64,000 nucleotides of DNA from an uncultured Sphingopyxis sp. (GTDB taxonomy: Bacteria > Pseudomonadota > Alphaproteobacteria > Sphingomonadales > Sphingomonadaceae). Positions 42,784 to 54,841 of the stretch are shown here, piece after piece. The notes beneath the pieces were generated by a model. That model worked only from the letters and a program-made list of their open reading frames with translations, was not told where the DNA came from and made no database searches. The stretch's first letter is position 1, and the number at the start of each line of letters is the position of its first letter. A program made the translations under genes and the position numbers. The DNA is taken from assembly GCA_937873425.1 (NCBI GenBank), contig CALMYE010000303.1, positions 50,928-114,927 on the forward strand. Reading direction: 5' to 3'.

Positions 42784-45720
42784 TTAGAATTTTGCGCCGA
42801 TCGCGACACCATAACGCCGCGGATCAAGCGTGTAGATATTTGTAAAATTACCGGAAGATGCATCGGTGACATAAAGTCCGGTAACTGAGTTGCTATCGAA
42901 GATATTCTGAACGAACCCCCGGACAAACCAGCGCTCGTCGGCACCATTCAACTGCAAAACTGCATTAGCCTGTACGAAAGGTTGGATGCGATTAATTCTG
43001 CCGTTGAAGATATTGCCATATTGCTTTCCGGTCATGGAAATGTCGACGCGGGGGACGAGTGTCATACCATTCCCGACCTCTGCCGTGTACTGCACGCCCA
43101 TCGAGACCTTGACATTCGGCGCTTGCGGCAATGTGTTGCCCTTGATGTTAACCTCGACGCCAGGACTCAATACCTGGATCCCGCTGTTCGCAGGGATAGC
43201 GCTCGCGAGGACACCGCAAATGCCGAACGCGCCGCTGGAGGCGATATTGCCGTCCGAAGGAAATTCCTGCGGTGCGCGAAGGCCGAGAGCCGCATTTACG
43301 CCCGCAACGAACGCATCAGCAACGCCAGGCGCAGGTCCCGTGACAGCGCAGTGCGCACCATTGCTGATGTCCTTGATAATCACGGCATCAGGATCCCCGC
43401 CGCCCGGATCACGCGGATTGGAGAAGAATTGATCGCCGGCGACCTTGGCATTGAGATAGCTGAAGGACAGATTGATAAGCCAGTTCGGGTCCGGCCTGAT
43501 GACAGACTCCAGTTCGACACCCCAGATATTGGCGTCAACCGTGTCATTCACGGACGTTCTTGCCACGATGCGGCTGAGCTGCAGTCCACTATATTTGTAG
43601 TAAAATGCGGTGGCATTGAGTTGTAACGCGCCGTTTGCGAAGACGTTCTTGGAGCCGATCTCGAAGGCATCGATCGTTTCAGAGCCGAAACTCTCGCTGA
43701 CGGCGAAAATCGGAGAAAGCGGAGGATTGATCCCGCCGGATTTGTAACCCCTAGAATAAGATGCATAGAGTGAATTGTCCGGCGTAACCTCGAAGGCCAG
43801 AACTGCTCGTCCGGTAATTTCGTCGAAGCTTACTTCGCGAAACTGGGCGAGCTGTTGGCCCGGCGTCCCCGGGTCGGCATCGAAAAGCCCAGACGGCCCG
43901 GTGAGGGGCGTTATCGGGGTATCGAACGGATCTCCATCATTGGCATAAGGGTTCAGGAAACTGATCAGCGTCGTACGCGCCGTCACATCCTTCTTGTCAT
44001 TATTGTAACGCAGCCCCCCGGTCAACGTCAGCCGGTCGCTTAGATCGAAATAGACCTCGCCGAAAATGCCATAGCTCTCTAGATTCGATTCCAGCGAGTT
44101 GTTCCGATACATCGACGTCGCGAAATAGGATGGCGGAAGGCCGCCCGACAAGGAGCCGAATGAACCCAATACGGCACTGGCGTAATCGAGCGCAAACGAG
44201 TTCACATAATAGCTATTGTCGGTGGTTTTCGATTTCGCGTAAATTCCGCCCAACAGGAAATTGAACGGCCCGTCGAAGTCACTCGTGAGGATGAGCTCTC
44301 CGCTCCACGATTCGCGTTGTTCCGAAGATCGATCGAAAGAAAGCGGCGTTTCGGAACACAGCGAGTTCCCTTCGAAAGCGCCTCTGCTTCCATCATCATT
44401 ATCCGACGTGCACAGCACGCCCTGCGGACCGTCCGGGATTAGAGCGCCGGCAATCGGCGAAAAATAGGCCGAAGAGCCGGGAATGAAGGCTGGCGCCGGC
44501 GGAGCAAGACCTGTCGGTAATCCGTTAGCCGCAAAAAAGTCCAACGTATTGAGCGCCGGGGCGAAACCGGCACGGCTTTGAATTCCAAGAAAATAGTCCT
44601 GCCTGGAATCGACTTCAGTATCCTGATAAATGCCGGTGGCCGTCAGGGTCATCGCGCCGAATTTTTGCTCAAGGCGCGCCTGCACCTGTAGCTCTTCGGC
44701 AAAATAGAAAGGGGTATAGGCCGTGTTGACGACACGCACATCGCCAGGCTCCTGAAACCCGGAAAACCCATCAGGGCCATAAAGGCTGCCGAGGCCGAGC
44801 ACGGCGGGAATGCCCTGAATGGCGAAGAACTCGGATGAACTGAGCGTCGCACCGACCGTTGAATTTGCGTTCGTGGTATCGAAATCACGTCGATTGTTCA
44901 GGCATCCGAGCACGCCCAATGGATCGCGTTGGCACGTTTGTTTCTGGTTTCTGAGGCGCGTGTCCTTTTCCCGGAAATAATAGCCCATGAGATCGATCGT
45001 CGTATCAGGACCGGGTTCGAAACGAAGGGAGCCTCGCAACGCATAGAGGTCCCGAGCGTCGATGTCCGATCCATCATAGAGATTCGTCGTATAACCGTCG
45101 CGGTTCACATATATGCCCGCCAGCCTCACGCCGATCATATCCCCGATCGGGACGTTGACCATGCCACGCGCTTCGATGCTGTTGAAATTGCCATACTCGA
45201 ATTGCGCTTCAGCCTCGAAACGGGAGAGTTTGGGTTTCGCGGTCACAACATTCACGACCCCGGAGGTCGCATTCCGGCCGAACAGGGTGCCTTGAGGTCC
45301 GCGAAGGACTTCAATCCTTTCCAGATCGAAATATTCGGTCTCGAACAGGCGTGTTCCGAACAAGGGGGATCCATTGACATGGATTGCGGTCGCAGCATCG
45401 CAGGTGACGCCGACGCACAGGTCGCCAACGCCGCGAATAGTGAATGAAGCTGAGGTGAAATTGCCTTTCGAGAAAGATACATTGGGCAGCGTCAGCTGTA
45501 GATCCGAGGCATTTTCGATCTGCTGGCTTTCAAGCGCCTCAGCGCTGAATGCGCTGACAGCGATCGGTACGTCTTGCAAGCTTTGCGCCTGACGTTGCGC
45601 TGTCACGACGATGACATTGTCACCGCCATCTGGCTCTTCGGCTATGACTTCCTGAGCATTTGAGACCTGTGGCAACGCCATCACGACGGCGCTTGCCAAC
45701 CAATAGGCTTTCTTATTCAT
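42784..45720 (-). CDS. TonB-dependent receptor
   Basis: Signal peptide, TonB box IVVTAQRQAQSLQDVP, plug EVLRGPQGTLFGRNA, terminal Phe. Confidence 0.93.
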   Translation of the reverse strand: MNKKAYWLASAVVMALPQVSNAQEVIAEEPDGGDNVIVVTAQRQAQSLQDVPIAVSAFSAEALESQQIENASDLQLTLPNVSFSKGNFTSASFTIRGVGDLCVGVTCDAATAIHVNGSPLFGTRLFETEYFDLERIEVLRGPQGTLFGRNATSGVVNVVTAKPKLSRFEAEAQFEYGNFNSIEARGMVNVPIGDMIGVRLAGIYVNRDGYTTNLYDGSDIDARDLYALRGSLRFEPGPDTTIDLMGYYFREKDTRLRNQKQTCQRDPLGVLGCLNNRRDFDTTNANSTVGATLSSSEFFAIQGIPAVLGLGSLYGPDGFSGFQEPGDVRVVNTAYTPFYFAEELQVQARLEQKFGAMTLTATGIYQDTEVDSRQDYFLGIQSRAGFAPALNTLDFFAANGLPTGLAPPAPAFIPGSSAYFSPIAGALIPDGPQGVLCTSDNDDGSRGAFEGNSLCSETPLSFDRSSEQRESWSGELILTSDFDGPFNFLLGGIYAKSKTTDNSYYVNSFALDYASAVLGSFGSLSGGLPPSYFATSMYRNNSLESNLESYGIFGEVYFDLSDRLTLTGGLRYNNDKKDVTARTTLISFLNPYANDGDPFDTPITPLTGPSGLFDADPGTPGQQLAQFREVSFDEITGRAVLAFEVTPDNSLYASYSRGYKSGGINPPLSPIFAVSESFGSETIDAFEIGSKNVFANGALQLNATAFYYKYSGLQLSRIVARTSVNDTVDANIWGVELESVIRPDPNWLINLSFSYLNAKVAGDQFFSNPRDPGGGDPDAVIIKDISNGAHCAVTGPAPGVADAFVAGVNAALGLRAPQEFPSDGNIASSGAFGICGVLASAIPANSGIQVLSPGVEVNIKGNTLPQAPNVKVSMGVQYTAEVGNGMTLVPRVDISMTGKQYGNIFNGRINRIQPFVQANAVLQLNGADERWFVRGFVQNIFDSNSVTGLYVTDASSGNFTNIYTLDPRRYGVAIGAKF

Positions 45721-46407
45721 CACCCTATCTCTCCCTGTCTCGATTTTTTCGTTTCTTGCGCGAACCCGTCCTTGTCCCCGATTGTCGATGTTCAAAAATG
45801 GGGCAGCTCGCCGAGCTGCCCCGAGTTTGAGGAGTGGCCAGAAGGAGATTTCCGGAGAGGAAAAGATTCTCGCCGCTCGGCTGGAAGATGAGCAGTTTTT
45901 CGGCATTTGGTAAAGAACTTTATTATGGCACTTTATTATTTTGCTCGGGGCGGTGGGAGGTGTGCCATCTCAGATCCGAAGATATCAGTTTATACATCCG
46001 ATGCTTGCTGTCAGCGCTTCAGCCTTGGCGCGGTCGAGCGCGCGCCGACGACTTTTGGATGCGGCTGCGGTACGGCATGCCCGATCCGGAGCGCATGACC
46101 CGCGTGGTCGAAAGTTGGATAGCAGTGCAAAAGGCCGGGCTCTGATCCCGGCTGGTGGAAACCAGGGGGTCAGGTCAGTTCACCTATTCCTTCCCGTTCA
46201 TTTTAGAGTCATCAAGATCGTATTAACCACGTCACGGTCCCTGCCGGGCAGGGCTTTCACGTGGGGGCATCCATGACCAGAACCAAACCATCCCTTAAGT
46301 CAGCTATCCTGTTGGCCAAATAGGATCAAGGCGACCGGCGCACCAATTTACCTCGTGACTGAGCCATGTGCGCGCGAAAACCGTCACCACTTCGATGGGG
46401 ATTCGAC

Positions 46408-47730
46408 ATGACATTGCCATTTCACATGCCGTCCACAATCCGCCTTTCGGGTGTAGGTCTTGCCGCTTGTGCGATTGCCACGATTGCTGCCGCAAGTGCG
46501 CAGGCGCTACCACTATCCAGCTTCAAGGATCAGGGCGTCGACCATATCTTTGGCAGCTACGCCCCGCGCGGCGACTGCTCAAAGGAACCGCGCGTAACCA
46601 TCGATGAAAAGGGCATGACGTTCCGCGCCAATGGTCGGGAAATAAAGCCCCCTCGGGTGGAATATGCTCTCACCTTCATGGGCCAGAGCTATGACGGCAT
46701 CATGGCAGTATTTTTTCCCTTTCCAGTTAGCAGCAATGATTTTGGTCGGGTTCTCATGTATGTGAACGACGACGAGAAGCGCGGTGTCATCCGCTTTGAA
46801 TCCGATCTGCCGCGCGGCCAACGCCCGGCTTCTTTCCATGCGGCCTTCACGGGTGGCGGCCCGTTCACGCTCTGCCAGGGCAGCGCTCTTGCTGGCACGC
46901 CACTGCCGCCACGGCCTGAGCCGGCGGTGGCCGTGCAAGGCATTCCAGCGGAATGGACCAATCTCGCCAGCCTCGTCGGCAAATATCCGGGAAGCTACGC
47001 CAAGGACAATATCGACCTGTTCGATAAGGGTACCTTGGCTGCGGCATTGAAGGCCCGGATGGGGCCGAAGATGGCTGCGCTGCGGACCAATCTCTCAGCC
47101 GTCTCGCCATTGCAGCGGGCTGGGAACTATTACTATCTTTCCGGCAATGCGCAGCATCAGGGCGGTGTGGAGCAGGCCTATATAATAATAGACCCGGCGC
47201 GCCGTGCGGTGCAGGTGGGCCTTTGGGAGCGCGGCAAGCTAACAGTTTATCCGTCTGCTTCGGGCGTTAGGCTGCCGATTGCGCCGGAAATCAAGACGCT
47301 GTTGGACAAAAGCCCGCCCGAAACGGCAGTGCCGCTTCCCGGTACACCCTGGGAAGTTGTACCGGTGCAAGGTCGCGCGCCCATGGCTTATGTGAGCGCC
47401 GCGGCATCGCCCAACATCGAAGCCCTCAGTCTCTATTGTGAAGGCGGAAAGCCCTACATGGCGATGCTGCTCAACAAGCCCTCCGCCGACAATGCGATGA
47501 CGATGACGTGGAACTTCTCCGGTCGGCTCGTTAGCATATCCGTTCAGCGCGCCAATGCGAACGGCACTCAATGGATCGGCGGCGTGACGGGCACGCAACT
47601 TGTTCCCCTGCTCATGCAGCAAAGCGGGACGGTGATGCTACGTATCAACGGGCGGCTGGAAGGCGAAGCCTCGCTCAGCAATTCAATTGCAGTGCTGCGC
47701 GATACCCTGCGGGGATGCGTGCGGCTCTGA
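46408..47730 (+). CDS. Secreted three-domain hypothetical protein
   Basis: Signal peptide; three segments separated by Pro-rich linkers; Cys pairs in first and last domains. Confidence 0.75.
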   Translation: MTLPFHMPSTIRLSGVGLAACAIATIAAASAQALPLSSFKDQGVDHIFGSYAPRGDCSKEPRVTIDEKGMTFRANGREIKPPRVEYALTFMGQSYDGIMAVFFPFPVSSNDFGRVLMYVNDDEKRGVIRFESDLPRGQRPASFHAAFTGGGPFTLCQGSALAGTPLPPRPEPAVAVQGIPAEWTNLASLVGKYPGSYAKDNIDLFDKGTLAAALKARMGPKMAALRTNLSAVSPLQRAGNYYYLSGNAQHQGGVEQAYIIIDPARRAVQVGLWERGKLTVYPSASGVRLPIAPEIKTLLDKSPPETAVPLPGTPWEVVPVQGRAPMAYVSAAASPNIEALSLYCEGGKPYMAMLLNKPSADNAMTMTWNFSGRLVSISVQRANANGTQWIGGVTGTQLVPLLMQQSGTVMLRINGRLEGEASLSNSIAVLRDTLRGCVRL

Positions 47731-47912
47731 CCTGTGAGAACGGCGCCGCCTCCATTTCAGGTGCTCTGCCACCTGAATTCTGGACCAGTTGCGGTTAGAG
47801 TTTTCCGCCGTAGATATCATTGGCTGGGCGAGGAGTTAGAGCGGGATGACATTTGGCTGATTCAAAGGGGATTCTTTTTTGGGCGGTTTTCTGATTCATA
47901 TGTGGACGCCCC

Positions 47913-48029
47913 CTATGGCAAGGGCTTTGTGGTCGCGATGGCTTTGATCGGTTGCTTTCATATGTCCGGCCTGTTTGTGCGGCGTTTTGAGTGCCGCTGG
48001 CCTTGATGGAAATCCGCCGGTGAGGTCCC
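47913..48029 (-). ncRNA. 3' (donor-binding) half of putative IS1111 bridge/seekRNA
   Basis: Contains CATCA and ACATATGA matching the element's left and right ends; joins 49886-49999 when IS5/IS481 are removed. Confidence 0.6.
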
Positions 48030-48033
48030 TAGG

Positions 48034-49032
48034 TGTTTAGTCCCAGCATGTGATGGTGTAAATTTGACCTCATCACAGCGGAGGGAGTTATGGGCCAGGT
48101 TCTCCACGGCAGCGCCAAGACCACGCACATCGTTCGAGGCGAGCTACAGCGATCGCAAGCTTCGGTCGCGCACCTTGCGAAGCGATACGGGATCAACGAG
48201 AAGACCGTCTTGAAGTGGCGCAAGCGGCAGTCGGTCGAAGACCTGCCGATGGGGCCAAGGGAGCGCCGCAGCACCGTCCTCTCGCCCATGGAAGAAGCCG
48301 CCATTGTGGCGCTGCGCGTACAGGCGAGGCTTCCGTTGGACGATGTCTACATCGCGCTGAAGGATGTCATCCCGCATCTGACGCGGTCGTCGCTGCATCG
48401 CTGCCTACAGCGGCATGGGATCAGCCGGCTGCCCAAAGCGGATCGCGAGAAGCCCAAGAAATTCAAGGCCTACGAGATCGGCTATTTCCACATCGATATC
48501 GCCGAACTGCGTCACGAAGGCGGCAAGGCTTTCCTCTATGTCGCTGTGGATCGCACATCAAAGCTGGTCTTCGCCCGCATTTATCGCAGGGCGACCAAGA
48601 TGGTGGCAGCCGGCTTCCTCAAATCGCTGATCCGTACAGTACCCTATAAAATCCACACCGTGCTGACTGATAATGGCGTACAGTTCGCTCAGTTCGAGCG
48701 TGGCTCTGGCCTCATCTTCCCGCATATCTTCGGTCGTGTTGCCCATGAGAATGGCATCGAGCATCGGCTGACCAAGCCCTACCATCCCTGGACCAACGGC
48801 CAAGCCGAGCGCATGGTGCGGACCATCAAGGAAGCGACTGTCAAATCCTTCCATTATGCGTCCATCACCGAACTGCGGCGGCACGTTCGCGACTGGCTGA
48901 TAGCTTACAACTTCGCCAAGCAGCTCAAGGCTCTCAGGTTCAAAACCCCATATGAGGCCATTGAGGAACTCTGGAAATCAAAGCCAGACATCTTTATCGT
49001 CGAGCCACACCATCACATGCTGGGACTAAACA
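48034..49032 (+). mobile_element. Intact IS481-family element (999 bp)
   Basis: Perfect 26-bp TGT...ACA IRs; CCTAGG duplication; transposase 48090-49037. Confidence 0.95.
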
Positions 49033-49036
49033 CCTA

Positions 49037-49885
49037 GGCCGCGTTGACAAAAGACTTCAGCCATAGCCGCGTGGCGGCGAGGTTTAGGAAGCTCTCGAAC
49101 GAGAGAAGGGTTTTGTCATATCGAGTGGCGATGCGTCGTTGCTGTTTGAGCTTTCCGAACATGCGCTCGACGCGGTTGCGGTCCTTGTAACGGCGATAGT
49201 CGGGATGCTCTGGCACCTTGCGGTTCGAGCGGGGCGGGATGATCGGCAGGATGCCCCGGGTCAGCAGGCTTTCCCGGAAGCGATCACCATCATAGCCCTT
49301 GTCCGCGAGCAGCGCCTTGGGTGTGGCGACGGGGATCGCCATCAGCGGTTCGGCAGCGGTGTAATCAGAAGCCTCGCCGCCGGTCAGGATGAAGCCGACA
49401 GGCAGTCCTTGATTGTCGCAGCGGGCGTGGATTTTGCTCGTAAAGCCGCCGCGTGATCGACCAAGAGCGTTCGCACAAGCCCCCCTTTTCCGCCCGCTGC
49501 CGAAACATGGCCGCGAACGCTGGTGCTGTCGATCATATGTTGCCAGTCGTCGGTCAGACCCAGATCGACCAGCGTTTGCAGCAGGGCATCCCAGACACCC
49601 TGTTCGGCCCAGCGCCGGAAGCGGACATAGACCGAGTTCCACTTGCCGTAGCGCTCGTGCATGTCGCGCCAAGGGCAGCCGACCCGCAGCACGTGAAGCA
49701 TGCCGTTGAGAAAGCGACGATTATCGCCCGACGGCCGCGCCCAGCGACCACGTTCAGGCGGCAGCAGCGGCCCAATCAGGTCCCACTCCGCATCCGACAA
49801 ATCCCCGCGACCCATGACTGATCCTCAAAAAGCAGTCTTGAATCAGAAGGAGGAGGATTTGGGAATCCCTTTTGTCAACACGGCC
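49037..49885 (-). mobile_element. IS5-family element (849 bp, IS427-like, two frames)
   Basis: IRs GGCCGYGTTGACAAAAG; TA duplication; orfA from 49815 and orfB to 49034 joined at a GAAAAGGGGG slip site. Confidence 0.92.
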
Positions 49886-49999
49886 TAATCAAGTTGGCGC
49901 GCGGTTGAAGCGCATTGAATCAGACGGGTTGGTTTCACCATTGGCTCGATCGTTACTCATCATTGACTGCCACTGCCAATTCGGTTGTTCGGTATTCTG
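49886..49999 (-). ncRNA. 5' (target-binding) half of putative IS1111 bridge/seekRNA
   Basis: Contains TCTGATTCAA (10/10 to reconstructed target) and AACTTGA (6/7). Confidence 0.6.
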
Positions 50000-51022
50000 T
50001 TAGGTCGTCAGTTGATAGGGCCCATAGGCTTCCTTCCGGGTCAGCACGACCCAGGCGATCCGGGCCAACTTGTTGGCAAGCGCCACGGAGACGACCCTGA
50101 ACGGCTTTTTCTCCGAGAGTTTCCTGATCCAGTCGGCCATGGGCGTTGGCTTATCCTTGATGTGGCGCATGACGGCGGTGGCGCCGACGACGAGCAGTCG
50201 GCGCAGATATCGGTCTCCCTGCTTCGAGATGCCACCCAACCTGGTCTTGCCGCCGGTGGAGTGCTGCTGCGGAGTTAGGCCGAGCCAGGCGGCGAATTGC
50301 CTTCCCGACCGGAACTGATCGGGATCGGTGACGATAGCAGCGATCGCGGTTGCCGTGATCACGCCGAGCCCCGGGATCGCGGCGAGCCTGCGAGAGGCCT
50401 CGCTCTCGGCATGCCAGGCCGCGAGTTGCTGGTCGAGCACCGCAATCTGGCTACTGACGCCCATGATCTGACGGATCAGTATCTCTACGGCCGCGCTTGC
50501 ATAGGATGGAAAAGCATCTTTGTTGGCCAGCACCTGGTCGGTCAGCTTTGCAAGGTTGGCAATGCCGGGGTTAGTGACGAAGCCCAGTTCCGCCAGATGC
50601 GCGCGCAGGGCATTGGCGAGCATAGTGCGCTGGCGCACGAGCAGGGACCGGGCGCGATGGGTCATGAGGATGGCCTGCTGCTCGACTGTCTTGACGGGCA
50701 CGAACCGCATCGTCGGACGCTGCACGGCTTCGCAGATCGCTTCGGCATCGAGGGCGTCGCTCTTGCCGCGCTTCACATAGGCCTTCACGTAGGATGGTGG
50801 GATCAAGCGAACCTCGTGTCCCATCTCGGCGAGCGTGCGTGCCCAGTAATGTGCCGTTCCGCACGCCTCAATGCCAATCAGGCATGGCGACAGCTTCGAA
50901 AAGAACGGCAGCATCTGCTTGCGGTGCAGCTTCTTCACCAGCACCGTGGCGCCGTTCTCATCGACGCCGTGCGCCTGGAAAACGCTCTTCGCCAGATCCA
51001 GTCCTATCGTCGCAATCCTCAT
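50000..51022 (-). CDS. IS110-family DEDD recombinase/transposase
   Basis: IGLDLAK, IEAC, KSDALDAEAI; C-terminal WLGLTPQQHSTGGK with catalytic Ser. Confidence 0.95.
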   Translation of the reverse strand: MRIATIGLDLAKSVFQAHGVDENGATVLVKKLHRKQMLPFFSKLSPCLIGIEACGTAHYWARTLAEMGHEVRLIPPSYVKAYVKRGKSDALDAEAICEAVQRPTMRFVPVKTVEQQAILMTHRARSLLVRQRTMLANALRAHLAELGFVTNPGIANLAKLTDQVLANKDAFPSYASAAVEILIRQIMGVSSQIAVLDQQLAAWHAESEASRRLAAIPGLGVITATAIAAIVTDPDQFRSGRQFAAWLGLTPQQHSTGGKTRLGGISKQGDRYLRRLLVVGATAVMRHIKDKPTPMADWIRKLSEKKPFRVVSVALANKLARIAWVVLTRKEAYGPYQLTT

Positions 51023-51135
51023 CGTGAACGCTCCTCTTTCTGTTCGGGTGACCGACTCGCAGCATAGCGGCTGCGGACCGGTGCAGGGGCGTCCACATCA
51101 TCAAGCTTTGTGCTGGGATTGGAGGCCAGCAAATC

Positions 51136-52078
51136 ATGTCCAGACCCATATCGACGGATTTACGCGAGCGGCTGGTTTTGGCGGTTTTGCGGGAGGGGAT
51201 TTCGGCCCGGGCTGCTGCGGCGCGCTTTGGTGTTTCGGTCAGCAGCGCGATTGTGTGGGTCCGTCGGCACCGTGAGACGGGGAGCGTGGCACCGGGCAAG
51301 ATCGGCGGTTACAAGCCCAACATTCTGTCGGGCGCGCATGGCGACTGGCTGGTCGAGCGAGCCAAGTCAGATTTCACCTTGCGCGGACTGGTTGCCGAAC
51401 TGGCCGAACGCGGGGTCAGGGTCGACTATGTGCAGGTCTGGCGCTTCGTCCATGCGCGGGGGCTGAGCTTCAAAAAAAAGCGTTCTTCCCGCCGAACAGC
51501 TGCGCCCCAAGATCGCAAGGCGGCGCGCGCAGTGGCGCAAGTATCAGGGGCGGCTTGATCCCCGGCATCTCGTCTTCATCGACGAGACCTGGGCCAAGAC
51601 CAACATGGCCCCGCTCAGGGGCTGGGCGCCCAAGGGCCAGCGGCTGCACGCCAAGGTGCCCTATGGCCATTGGCGCACCATGACCTTCATCGCCGCGCTG
51701 CGCTGCGACCGGATCGATGCACCGTGCGTCCTCGATCAGCCGATCAACGGGGCCACCTTTGCCAAATGGGTCGAGCAGTTCCTCGTGCCCACCCTCGCAC
51801 CGGGCGACGTCGTCATCATGGACAACCTCTCCAGCCACAAACGTCCAGCTATCCGCCAGGCCATCCGTGCCGCCAAGGCCAAGTTGCTCTACCTGCCACC
51901 ATATTCGCCCGACCTGAACCCGATCGAGCAGATGTTCTCGAAGCTCAAACACCTGCTGCGAAAGGCCTCCGAGCGAACCGCTGAAAACACCTGGCGACGC
52001 ATCGGATCATTGCTCGATGCCTTCAGCCCACAAGAGTGTGCCAACTACTTCGCCAACTCCGGATATGCATCAACCTAA
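51136..52078 (+). CDS. IS630 transposase (two ORFs joined by frameshift at A8G 51472-51480)
   Basis: HTH orfA; orfB DETWAK, MDNLSSH, LPPYSPDLNPIEQ. Confidence 0.9.
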
Positions 52079-52093
52079 TGTCATCCCGGTCTA

Positions 52094-52976
52094 ATGTGCG
52101 CTGGCGGCCCGCGCGTAACGAACAGCTCGGCCAGGGCCGCAAGCACGTCGTCGCTCTTGAGCTTGCGCGCGACCGGCAACGCCAGGCACTCCCGGCTCGC
52201 CTCGTCGATGATCGACAGGATCCGGTATTTGCGGCCATCGTGGGTGCGACCCTCGACGAAGTCGTAGGACCAGACATGCCCAGGATACTCGGGCCGAAGC
52301 CGGATGCATGATCCGTCGTTCAGCCACAATCGCCCGCGCTTCGGTTGCCTTTGCGGCACCTTGAGCCCCTCGCGTCGCCAGATGCGCTCGACCCGCTTGC
52401 GGTTCACATGCCACCCCGCGTCGCGCAGCAACGCAGTCACCCGGCGATAGCCATAACGACCATATTGCCGCGCCAGCGCGATGATATCCTCGGTAAGAGC
52501 CGCTTCGTCATCTGCTCCGCGGGGCGCCTTGCGCTGTGTCGACCGGTGCTGCCCAAGCACACGGCACAGCCGCCGCTCGGACACCGGCATCATCATTCTG
52601 ATGTGGTCGATACAGCGCCTTCGGCGCGCGGGGCTCAGAAGTTTCCCCGAGCAGCTTCCTGCAGGATCAGTTTGTCCAGCGTCAGGTCAGAGATCGCACG
52701 ACGAAGCCGCGCATTCTCTTTCTCCAGGTCCTTCATTCGCCGCGCCTGATCGGTCTTCAGGCCGCCATATTCCTTGCGCCACCGATAATAGGTCTGCTCG
52801 CTGACCGCGATCCGGCGACACGCTTCTGCGGTCGTCGCACCCTGCGCCAGAACAACCTCCGCTTCACGCAGCTTGCCGATAATCTCTTCCGGGTGATGCT
52901 TCTTGCTCGGCATTCATAATCTCCTTCGAAATCCAAAATATCATCAATTTTGGACCACTCAGAAGGAGGCAGATCA
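52094..52976 (-). mobile_element. IS3-family (IS407-like) element truncated by IS630
   Basis: Left end TGATCTGCC at 52976; orfA 52635-52913; orfB ends abruptly at RGPPAHI. Confidence 0.88.
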
Positions 52977-53133
52977 AAGGCTGGACTGTGCGCTGGTAGT
53001 TGAACGCCTCCGGCGACCGGATCGCCTTCCGGACCACCTTGCGCGATAACCGAAGATCACGGGCGATCACCTTGATCGCCTTGCCAGACGCATGCTCACG
53101 CCGAATCCGAACCACTGTCTCCACTACGAACAT
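52977..53133 (-). pseudogene. IS21-family IstA N-terminal fragment
   Basis: GKAIKVIARDLRLSRKVVRKAIRS HTH cut by the IS407-like end. Confidence 0.75.
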
Positions 53134-53214
53134 CCCGTTCTCGCCAACTAATCAAACCAGTCAGCCGCCTAAATCCTCGGGATGAAGGGTCCTATTGCAC
53201 GCTGATCCTCAGCC

Positions 53215-53463
53215 TTGGCCGAAACGATCAATGGCCTTTACAAGGCGGAGGTGATCCACCGGCGAGGTCCGTGGCGATCCTTTGAAGCTGTCGAATATGC
53301 CACGCTCGAATGGGTCGACTGGTTCAACAACAGGCGGCTGCTCAAGCCTATCGGAAACATCCCGCCCGCTGAAGCCGAAGAACGATATGACGCCATGCTG
53401 GACGACATCGCCATGGCTGCGTAACTTATGCCAAATGGCCTCCGGCAGTCCCGCGGCGCTTCA
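53215..53463 (+). mobile_element. IS3-family 3' fragment with right end
   Basis: AETINGLYKAEVIHRRGPW...WFNNRRLLKPIGNIPPAEAE; terminal CA. Confidence 0.85.
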
Positions 53464-53632
53464 CTTCATATTCGACGGCGTATACGACCATGCCTTCGAC
53501 AAACGATTTTAACCGGTACAACTGAGGCCGAGCCAGCAAACCCAATCATACACCGCTACGATCGCGACATCATCGATCGGAGAAAGATGCAAAAACCCCT
53601 CTTGACGGTCACGCGACCGTTACAAGTCCACG

Positions 53633-54841
53633 CTATTTTACCAAGTCCTTGGATATGACCTCGCGCTGGATTTCGGAGGCACCGCCGAAAATAGTGCCCG
53701 CCAAACCGTTCAGATGCCTACCGACTATTGCCCAACCGTGTTCTGGCACTGGAGCCTCATTGGAAACTGCGAATGCTGGACCATCGAATGCCAAATCAGG
53801 CAGCGCATGGGGCCCAAGGGCTTCCACCGAAGCTTTTTCGATCTCTTGGAGAAGCTCAGAGGCGAGCGTCTTGATGAGCGAAGCTGTCGTGCCGAGACGT
53901 TCTCCGGTCTGTCGCTTTGCGACTAGCCGCATGTCTAGCGCTTCGAGCGCCATCACTCGCGCCTCCAATTCGCCCAATCGAAATTGCCTATCTTTTTCGT
54001 CAATCAGGCGACTGCCATGGGAATCGCCGACTTCGTTCCGCAGGACATTCTTGAATCGCTCAAGCGCCACGCGCGATCGAACGGATGGCGCGCCGCCGCC
54101 TCGTTCGAATTCAAGCAGGTACTTGGCCTGGTTCCAGCCTTTTCCTTCTTCACCAACGAGGTTTTCGACCGGCACGCGAACGTCGTCGAAGAACACCTGG
54201 TTAACTTCATGATCGCCGCCAAGAGTAATGATCGGTCGAACCGAAACACCCGGTGATTTCATGTCGATGAGGAGAAAGCTGATCCCTTGCTGCTGCCGTT
54301 CCTCCGGCGACGTGCGCGCGAGCACGAAGATCATGTTCGCGAAATGCGCATGGGTCGTCCAGATCTTTTCACCGGTGACGATGTAATGATCGCCATCCCG
54401 CACGGCCTTCGTCTTCAGGCTGGAAAGGTCAGAGCCGGCGCCAGGCTCGGAAAAGCCCTGGCACCAGTAGTCTTCGCCGGATCGAATGCGAGGTAGATAG
54501 AACTCCTTCTGCCAGGGTGAACCGAACTCGCAGATGACTGGTCCGACGAGATTGATTCCCATGGGCGCGACGGCAGGAGCGCCACAGAGTGATGCCTCGC
54601 TCTCATAGATATATCGCTGCATGGGAGACCAGCCACATCCGCCGTATTCCCGAGGCCAGGCATGGGTAATCCAGCCCTTCCGGAATAGCGCCTGATGCCA
54701 TTCTTTTGACCAGGGGGGATCGACGAATACGCCGGTGGATAACCGACTCGCGCGACGGACGTCCGCCGACAGATGCTCCTCAAGGAAGGATAATACTTCC
54801 CGACGGAATTCGAGATCCTCTGGGGCTAGATCAATATCCAA
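53633..54841 (-). CDS. Acyl-CoA dehydrogenase (PimC-like large subunit)
   Basis: WCQGFSEPGAGSDL, GEKIWTT, IFGGASEIQR. Confidence 0.92.
   Translation of the reverse strand: MDIDLAPEDLEFRREVLSFLEEHLSADVRRASRLSTGVFVDPPWSKEWHQALFRKGWITHAWPREYGGCGWSPMQRYIYESEASLCGAPAVAPMGINLVGPVICEFGSPWQKEFYLPRIRSGEDYWCQGFSEPGAGSDLSSLKTKAVRDGDHYIVTGEKIWTTHAHFANMIFVLARTSPEERQQQGISFLLIDMKSPGVSVRPIITLGGDHEVNQVFFDDVRVPVENLVGEEGKGWNQAKYLLEFERGGGAPSVRSRVALERFKNVLRNEVGDSHGSRLIDEKDRQFRLGELEARVMALEALDMRLVAKRQTGERLGTTASLIKTLASELLQEIEKASVEALGPHALPDLAFDGPAFAVSNEAPVPEHGWAIVGRHLNGLAGTIFGGASEIQREVISKDLVK

Follow-up and report, generated by a model that had tools for sequence, protein, structure and literature searches.

An IS1111-group insertion sequence of Sphingopyxis with a predicted bridge/seekRNA matching a leader motif of IS630 and IS5-type elements

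The stretch of DNA analysed here (the window; 64,000 nucleotides of contig CALMYE010000303.1 of an uncultured Sphingopyxis sp.) carries a four-deep nest of insertion sequences (IS), in which an IS630-family host is interrupted by an IS110-family element of the IS1111 group, which holds an IS5/IS427-type element that has been entered by an IS481-family element, as found by listing of the open reading frames (ORFs), Pfam matches and direct reading (table 1). The subject of this report is the second element of the nest, which very probably encodes in its non-coding region (NCR) a bridge/seekRNA that guides it into a leader motif of IS630 and IS5-type elements. The element is a member of the IS1111 group, with an intact DEDD transposase, 13-bp subterminal inverted repeats (IRs) and a TGA core. 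The transposase matches PF01548 (DEDD_Tnp_IS110, 5.8e-17) and PF02371 (Transposase_20, 1.3e-25), and its C-terminal domain matches the structures of IS621 (E 2.5e-11) and ISCro4 (E 3.8e-12). Its 340 residues and GLTPQQHSTG sequence agree with the description of IS1111 transposases (330-350 amino acids, GL-P----S/TG motif; PMC11187229). The subterminal IRs (ATGTGGACGCCCC at 47900-47912, with the complement at 51086-51098) lie within the 7-17 bp range of the group, and the 248 nt of NCR downstream of the gene, versus 81 nt upstream, reproduce its long NCR and short left end. No target duplication is seen beyond the core: TGA stands once in the empty IS5 site GCAGTCT-TGA-ATCAGAA and at both junctions in its occupied homologue.

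Removal of the nested IS5 and IS481 elements rejoins the NCR, as had been proposed in the initial annotation; across positions 1-248 the rejoined region is 100% identical to the uninterrupted copies that two genomes of this genus carry, and its length, counting the core, is 248 nt rather than the 247 nt first given. Sphingopyxis chromosomes with an intact copy include CP009429, CP009122 and CP013344. The short strings reported there were all recovered by direct reading where it had placed them. Four segments of the NCR, referred to as guides, match the target site and the element's two ends; all four contain the TGA/TCA core. The TGATTC of the right-flank guide TCTGATTCAA is invariant in 35 NCRs and complementary to the conserved flank T|TGA|ATCAGA, while the reverse complement of 49889-49895, within the left-flank guide CCAACTTGA, reads AACTTGA, a 6/7 match to AGCTTGA. 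The former (top-strand match) lies 5' of the latter (bottom-strand match) and the two overlap at the core, which is the order of the IS1111 group. When the NCR was shuffled 5000 times, a match of at least 10 nt to the 23-nt empty site was obtained in 0.4% of the shuffles and one of at least 8 nt to the circle junction in 4.7%, but both jointly in 0/5000.

Table 1. Nested elements, guide segments and target sites in the window (element sense is the minus strand for the IS1111-group element).
Feature	Position	Strand	Remarks
Host IS630-family element	47837-52093	+	IR TAGAGCGGGATGACATTTGG; split 62 bp from its left tip by the IS1111-group element
IS630 left end	47837-47898	+	IR TAGAGCGGGATGACATTTGG and three GATTC (GANTC) sites; ends in target half TCTGATTCA
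IS630 remainder	51104-52093	+	AGCT target half, hairpin sequestering the Shine-Dalgarno (SD) sequence, transposase split at A8 run (51472-51479)
IS1111-group element	47899-51103	-	1349 bp once nested elements are removed; in the IS630 leader
Core TCA (TGA in element sense)	47896-47898; second copy 51101-51103	.	Right-end junction; left junction
NCR, 3' part (133 nt)	47899-48031	-	Donor-binding half of predicted bridge/seekRNA; right subterminal IR (47900-47912)
NCR, 5' part (112 nt)	49888-49999	-	Target-binding half of predicted bridge/seekRNA
IS110-family DEDD transposase	50000-51022	-	340 aa, intact, GLTPQQHSTG motif; PF01548 and PF02371
IS1111 left end (81 nt)	51023-51103	-	Left subterminal IR (51086-51098) and core (51101-51103)
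Right-flank (top-strand-pairing) target guide TCTGATTCAA	49915-49924	-	10/10 to the rejoined site ...TTCTGATTCA|AGCTTTG
Left-flank (bottom-strand-pairing) target guide CCAACTTGA	49889-49897	-	Covaries with left flanks
Hairpin TGCGC-TTCAACC-GCGCG between target guides	49898-49914	-	Helix 3; 98.9% of cells paired, GC-to-AU compensatory changes
Donor guide CATCA	48004-48008	-	Complementary to core and left end (TGA|TG); left end reads TGA|TGATG
Donor guide ACATATGA	47958-47965	-	Identical to right end and core (CCACATA|TGA)
Unoccupied target CTTGAATCAGAA in nested IS5 leader	49837-49848	-	Direct reading
Second unoccupied look-alike CTGATTCAA near IS630 tip	47857-47865	+	9/10; direct reading
IS5/IS427-type element	49039-49885 and first two bases 48032-33	-	DUF4096 OrfA and DDE OrfB; TA duplication
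IS481-family element	48034-49032	+	rve integrase, 315 aa; CCTAGG duplication at 48028-33 and 49033-38; at IS5/NCR junction

Homologous NCRs (35 distinct sequences, 73-100% identity) align with a mean column identity of 81%, the guide-like segments being conserved islands and the helices being kept. A two-loop structure, written by hand and then scored on this alignment, has 95.7% of the cells paired and seven pairs with compensatory change, which was reached by 0/500 shuffles, and slid controls of the same structure had less than 41% of the cells paired. Helices 1, 3 and 6 covary (helix 1 with four compensatory pairs). That the matches might fall in internal loops had been raised in the initial annotation and, for the target side, this is what the fold gives: the two target guides occupy the two strands of an internal loop, closed by a CCC:GGG helix and located within helix 1, between the invariant helix 2 and the covarying helix 3. 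On the donor side, the two matches lie around a second covarying hairpin. The target-loop helices were recovered by RNAalifold as well as in the single-sequence fold of the rejoined NCR. The NCR also contains an invariant GATGATG (reverse complement of about 49957-49963, in element sense), which imitates TGA|TGATG, the left end of the element itself, and might act as an internal decoy or form a closing helix.

Two of the guides also change together with the sequences that they match. For the left-flank guide, compared with the flank over six positions upstream of TGA, 139 of 234 positions match, against 111.3 +/- 4.4 when the flanks are permuted (p<5e-5), as illustrated by L074 (guide CCAGTT, flank CCAGTT), L083 (GCAGCC, GAAGCC), L075 (CCAAGT, CCAAGC) and L093 (CTAGCT, ATAGCT). 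A T to C change converts the donor guide ACATATGA into ACACATGA in exactly the four elements that have the right end CCACACATGA, of which L056 and L099 belong to one sequence group and L075 and L082 to a different one. The left-end donor guide CATCA is invariant in the 35 NCRs and the left end does not vary either; the right-flank guide is nearly invariant, as is its target.

The sites used by other members of the clade were collected in a scan of relatives limited to one genome per species, which yielded 77 loci (the best segment of the transposase being 52-100% identical, and 73-89% in most of those of full length) in Sphingomonadales, Hyphomicrobiales, Rhodobacterales and others, with more in plasmid records. 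The consensus of 40 unique complete sites, one of which (L030) is non-family, is (A)(G)CT|TGA|ATCAGA. Upstream of the core, A or G is found at -4, G or T at -3, C at -2 (28/40) and T at -1 (34/40); the core TGA is present in 39-40 of the 40; and downstream follow A (39), T (37), C (37) and A (34), then G (19) or C (10), and A (19). With 42 of 49 unique right flanks also starting with TGAATCA, the sites of other copies do not lack the TGATTCAA motif of the initial annotation. Exact copies of the window element are present in five relatives and, in public assemblies, at nine places. All have the outer context IS3 / IS630::IS1111 / Ivy-domain / TonB and, because this context is identical, represent one ancestral insertion on a shared backbone; therefore, independent evidence comes from the diverged copies.

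Among 39 complete independent sites, 23 lie in IS leaders (22/28 outside one metagenome-assembled genome (MAG) of Hoeflea), every one at the TGATTCA|AG position and oriented antisense to the transposase of its host, so that these sites document repeated, orientation-specific insertion at one position of another element's terminal region. When the left flanks are read in the host sense, a transposase starts within about 110 nt (an IS630 OrfA in 13 distinct cases, an IS5 DUF4096 OrfA in 15), and Pfam adds DDE_3, DUF772/DDE_Tnp_1 and DDE_Tnp_1_5 host transposases; the hosts comprise IS630, IS5/DUF4096 and two other IS5-family groups. The right flanks run into IS ends, with GANTC exactly 23 nt from the target GAATC in 22 of 49, and the IS5-type repeat TTGTCAACA in 11. 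In a single Pelagibacterium genome (L048-L055), one identical element is found in both IS630 and IS5 leaders, and 8/8 contig copies abut IS630 or IS5 ends. The 12-mer CTTGAATCAGAA of the nested IS5 leader, which had been pointed out as a further target, is unoccupied in the window, but the exactly homologous position is occupied on plasmid pRW412a of Sphingopyxis granuli, where a 97.6% identical element with the same guides interrupts an IS5 at GCAGTCT|TGAATCAGAA. No homologue inserted at the outer look-alike site of IS630 (47857-47865) was found among the surveyed flanks.

What the IS630-type and IS5/IS427-type left ends have in common is a GATTC-N18-GATTC module (23 nt from start to start) placed between the terminal repeat and the SD hairpin, as seen at window 47859-47897, in L201 (110-165) and in loci L112-L191. 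The same spacing is found in the window IS630 and in ISRm2011-2, an uninterrupted element of Sinorhizobium meliloti that has AGATTCA as the second half of the module. Among 75 metagenomic relatives of the window IS5 (80-100% OrfA identity), TGATTCA is kept at the same leader position in 71, and in more distant uninterrupted IS5-type elements (30-51% OrfA identity) it stands 30-45 nt before the start codon in 8/9. No IS1111 element occupies any of the 75 metagenomic relatives, whose short contigs may break at nested repeats. The column profile of 60 distinct IS5 leaders reveals two near-invariant islands, GGATTCCCA and TGATTCAAG, separated by a spacer of 12-14 nt that is free in sequence and fixed in length. 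Both halves of the module are GANTC, the site recognized by CcrM, a methylase conserved among Alphaproteobacteria (PMC9296519, PMC3925955). In its layout the module resembles a promoter, and the motif may be part of that of the host IS, in which case insertion would separate the host IS from it. Readings of the motif as an integration host factor site, an extracytoplasmic function sigma factor promoter or a sigma-54 promoter were rejected, since the consensus sequences do not fit. The literature searched offered no precedent for GANTC in IS leaders.

From these elements, the following path can be proposed. The 248-nt NCR would be transcribed into a bridge/seekRNA of about 90-190 nt which, in the model, covers the stretch from GGTGAAACC to GAAAGC. 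Within its target loop, TCTGATTCAA would pair with the top strand of T|TGA|ATCAGA and CCAACTTGA with the bottom strand across the left flank and the core, and around the second hairpin CATCA and ACATATGA would recognize the element's own left and right ends, respectively. The transposase, once loaded with this RNA, would recombine the circularized element into (A)(G)CT|TGA|ATCAGA sites, a sequence that coincides with the downstream half of the GATTC-N18-GATTC module in the IS630 and IS5/IS427-type leaders of Alphaproteobacteria; by virtue of this coincidence, members of the clade accumulate in IS leaders, always in antisense orientation. Each such insertion places 1.35 kb between the end-proximal leader of the host element and its transposase gene, and may silence the host IS. 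The proposal of the initial annotation that the element is RNA-guided to a motif common to unrelated IS630 and IS5 leaders is thus supported by the flank logo, the leader counts, the fold and the guide covariation.

Several observations weigh against this reading. The left-flank guide of the window element agrees with its own site at 3/6 positions upstream of the core. For the right-flank guide, covariation at +8/+9 was not significant (p=0.17), with few variants (CGTG occurs with CACG in 2/3, TGTG with CACA in 1/1 and CCTG with CAGG in 0/4). Helices 2, 4 and 5, including those that close the donor loop, and the CATCA guide never vary, so that covariation backs the donor loop only in part, and in a long-range RNAalifold alternative CATCA is paired with the upstream invariant TGATG. 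The energy of the single-sequence fold is no lower than that of shuffled sequences (z 0.3 and -0.1), a scan of 45000-54000 against Rfam 15 returned no family at E<=1 (the window copy of the NCR being split), and a scan of 47700-51250 for consensus sigma-70 promoters and terminators found none. Finally, specificity is short and tolerant (about 8-10 bp plus a tolerant left flank), and therefore the same guide also lands outside IS elements: in the Hoeflea sp. MAG, 10/11 copies with the same guides are at TGAATCA-like sites outside IS elements.

The last point is the starting one for the explanation that survives best next to RNA-guided insertion into the leaders, namely that a generic short word (about TGAATCA[G]) is recognized with no aim at IS elements, so that leaders are found occupied as they are multi-copy, dispensable and carry the word, other insertions having been purged. 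It is favoured, besides the Hoeflea copies, by the 104 TGAATCA and 42 TGAATCAG sites of the element's own genome and by the loose matching of the left flank (mean, 3.6/6 positions). However, of the 40-100 or so candidate words in a genome only a few can lie in leaders, and yet leaders hold 23 of the 39 sites; all eight contig copies of Pelagibacterium abut IS630 or IS5 ends; and the left-flank guide tracks the flank that adjoins it. The explanation is, on balance, possible but rather unlikely, and it differs from that of targeted insertion solely in the shares of the bias that are assigned to targeting and to survival. The Hoeflea copies (L059-L069) are eleven copies of one element with the guides of the window element, one of which lies in an IS5 leader; several are at imperfect sites (TGCATCA, TGAATAC, TGAAATC, TGAATCG), which suggests a burst with relaxed specificity.

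A stronger version of the leader-directed reading may also be considered. In it the clade would be a dedicated RNA-guided hyperparasite of IS elements, aimed at the common GANTC-N18-GANTC module because this would be a methylation-sensitive promoter of the CcrM/GcrA type that the hosts cannot easily change; insertion would switch the host IS off, and the clade would limit the spread of IS630 and IS5 and might be kept by host-level selection as an anti-transposon element. Taken as a whole, this is regarded as unlikely.

It could further be argued that the IS-in-IS pattern goes back to a single old insertion, or to a few, later multiplied in the form of composite IS630::IS1111 or IS5::IS1111 units, rather than to repeated homing. 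The exact copies, which descend from one event, behave in this way, but the hosts fall in at least four unrelated or distant groups with differing leader sequences, the identical Pelagibacterium element is found in the leaders of both families, and the 97.6% relative on pRW412a is located in an IS5, not in an IS630; composite copying as the general cause is therefore very improbable. Choice of the target by the protein only, with the NCR matches due to chance or the NCR acting as a 3' untranslated region, a terminator or a transposase binding site, would agree with the unremarkable fold energy and the lack of a Rfam match, but is hardly credible given the joint matches absent from all 5000 shuffles, the compensatory changes in helices 1, 3 and 6, the covariation of the guides with flank and right end, and the finding that the NCR RNA is essential in experiments on other IS1111 members (PMC11187229).

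The mechanism so outlined is that of the known bridge/seekRNA elements, and what is unusual is the class of target. Among the targets already known for IS1111 members are Tn21 ends, attC sites and repetitive extragenic palindromic (REP) repeats. The closest parallel for the site is offered by IS4321 and IS5075, also of the IS1111 group (cited in PMC11208160), which share with the present element the subterminal IRs and the insertion in one orientation at a fixed position of another transposon's terminal region. These two insert into the 38-bp terminal repeat that Tn21-family (Tn3-type) transposons carry in enterobacteria, whereas here the target is a leader motif between terminal repeat and transposase start, common to unrelated IS630 and IS5 hosts in Alphaproteobacteria. 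ISEc11, ISPa11, ISKpn4 and ISPst6 (Siddiquee et al. 2024, PMC11187229) have the same NCR downstream of a transposase of 330-350 residues with the GL-P----S/TG motif, and in their seekRNAs, too, two short overlapping segments match both target strands, with the top-strand match 5' (PMC11187229). These seekRNAs have been purified with the transposase and reprogrammed experimentally, and have other targets, whereas the present element is known from sequence alone. The bridge RNA of IS621 (Durrant et al. 2024, PMC11208160; 8WT6) resembles the predicted one in working with a DEDD recombinase and in combining in one RNA target and donor loops that read both strands around the core; it differs in its location in the left end upstream of the gene, the CT core, the very short subterminal repeats and the reversed order of the guides. 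ISPmar4 of Paracoccus marcusii (IS1111 group, 1343 bp; PMC3832669) is alphaproteobacterial and of nearly the same length, and its subterminal repeat ATGG(c/t)CCGCCCC resembles ATGTGGACGCCCC, a likeness that is drawn from the description only and offered as a lead (PMC3832669).

In the literature searched, IS1111 elements that target the leaders of IS630 or IS5 are not described. What would be new is an alphaproteobacterial clade of wide distribution that is naturally programmed against the regulatory leaders of other insertion sequences, these belonging to unrelated families. It is a clear instance of one transposon parasitizing another by means of an RNA guide that can be read. At the same time, the element exposes a conserved two-part GATTC-N18-GATTC module in the leaders of IS630 and IS5, both halves of which are CcrM methylation sites.

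The window copy itself, which is the only one in its assembly, can no longer act in this way in cis. The IS5 entered a TTAG that borders the left-flank guide on its 3' side (junctions 48028-48033 and 49886-49888) and, with the IS481 at its junction, puts 1.86 kb between the target loop and both its closing helices and the entire donor half; the RNA gene being broken, a functional guide RNA in cis is impossible, although the transposase is intact. The IS5 insertion created at its junction the sequence CCTAGG, which IS481 then used as its site (a target of the NCTAGN type). Three relatives (G017, G026 and G032) have the same IS5 and lack IS481, so that IS5 landed before IS481.

With regard to the host, the IR TAGAGCGGGATGACATTTGG of IS630 matches the reverse complement of 52074-52093, with the same layout in its relative ISRm2011-2. 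Its transposase is read as two ORFs of 140 and 157 residues, split at the A8 run at 51472-51479; related IS630 elements have A9 and a single ORF of 313 residues (the CP009429 copy). The split may reflect a genuine frameshift, a slippery site or a mistake in the assembly.

When the ends of the IS1111-group element are joined as in a circle (47899-47935 with 51086-51103), an invariant TTGCCA in the right end is followed, after 18 nt, by a GATGAT that runs across the core and the left end, and this arrangement would form a sigma-70-like promoter solely in the circular form. Junction promoters formed on circularization are known for other IS110-family elements. Beyond the nest, IS3-family ORFs adjoin the right end of IS630 (52081-53130) and are followed by a further integrase-core remnant (53215-53424), so that 52081-53424 appears as an IS graveyard beside the transfer genes that had been named in the initial annotation.

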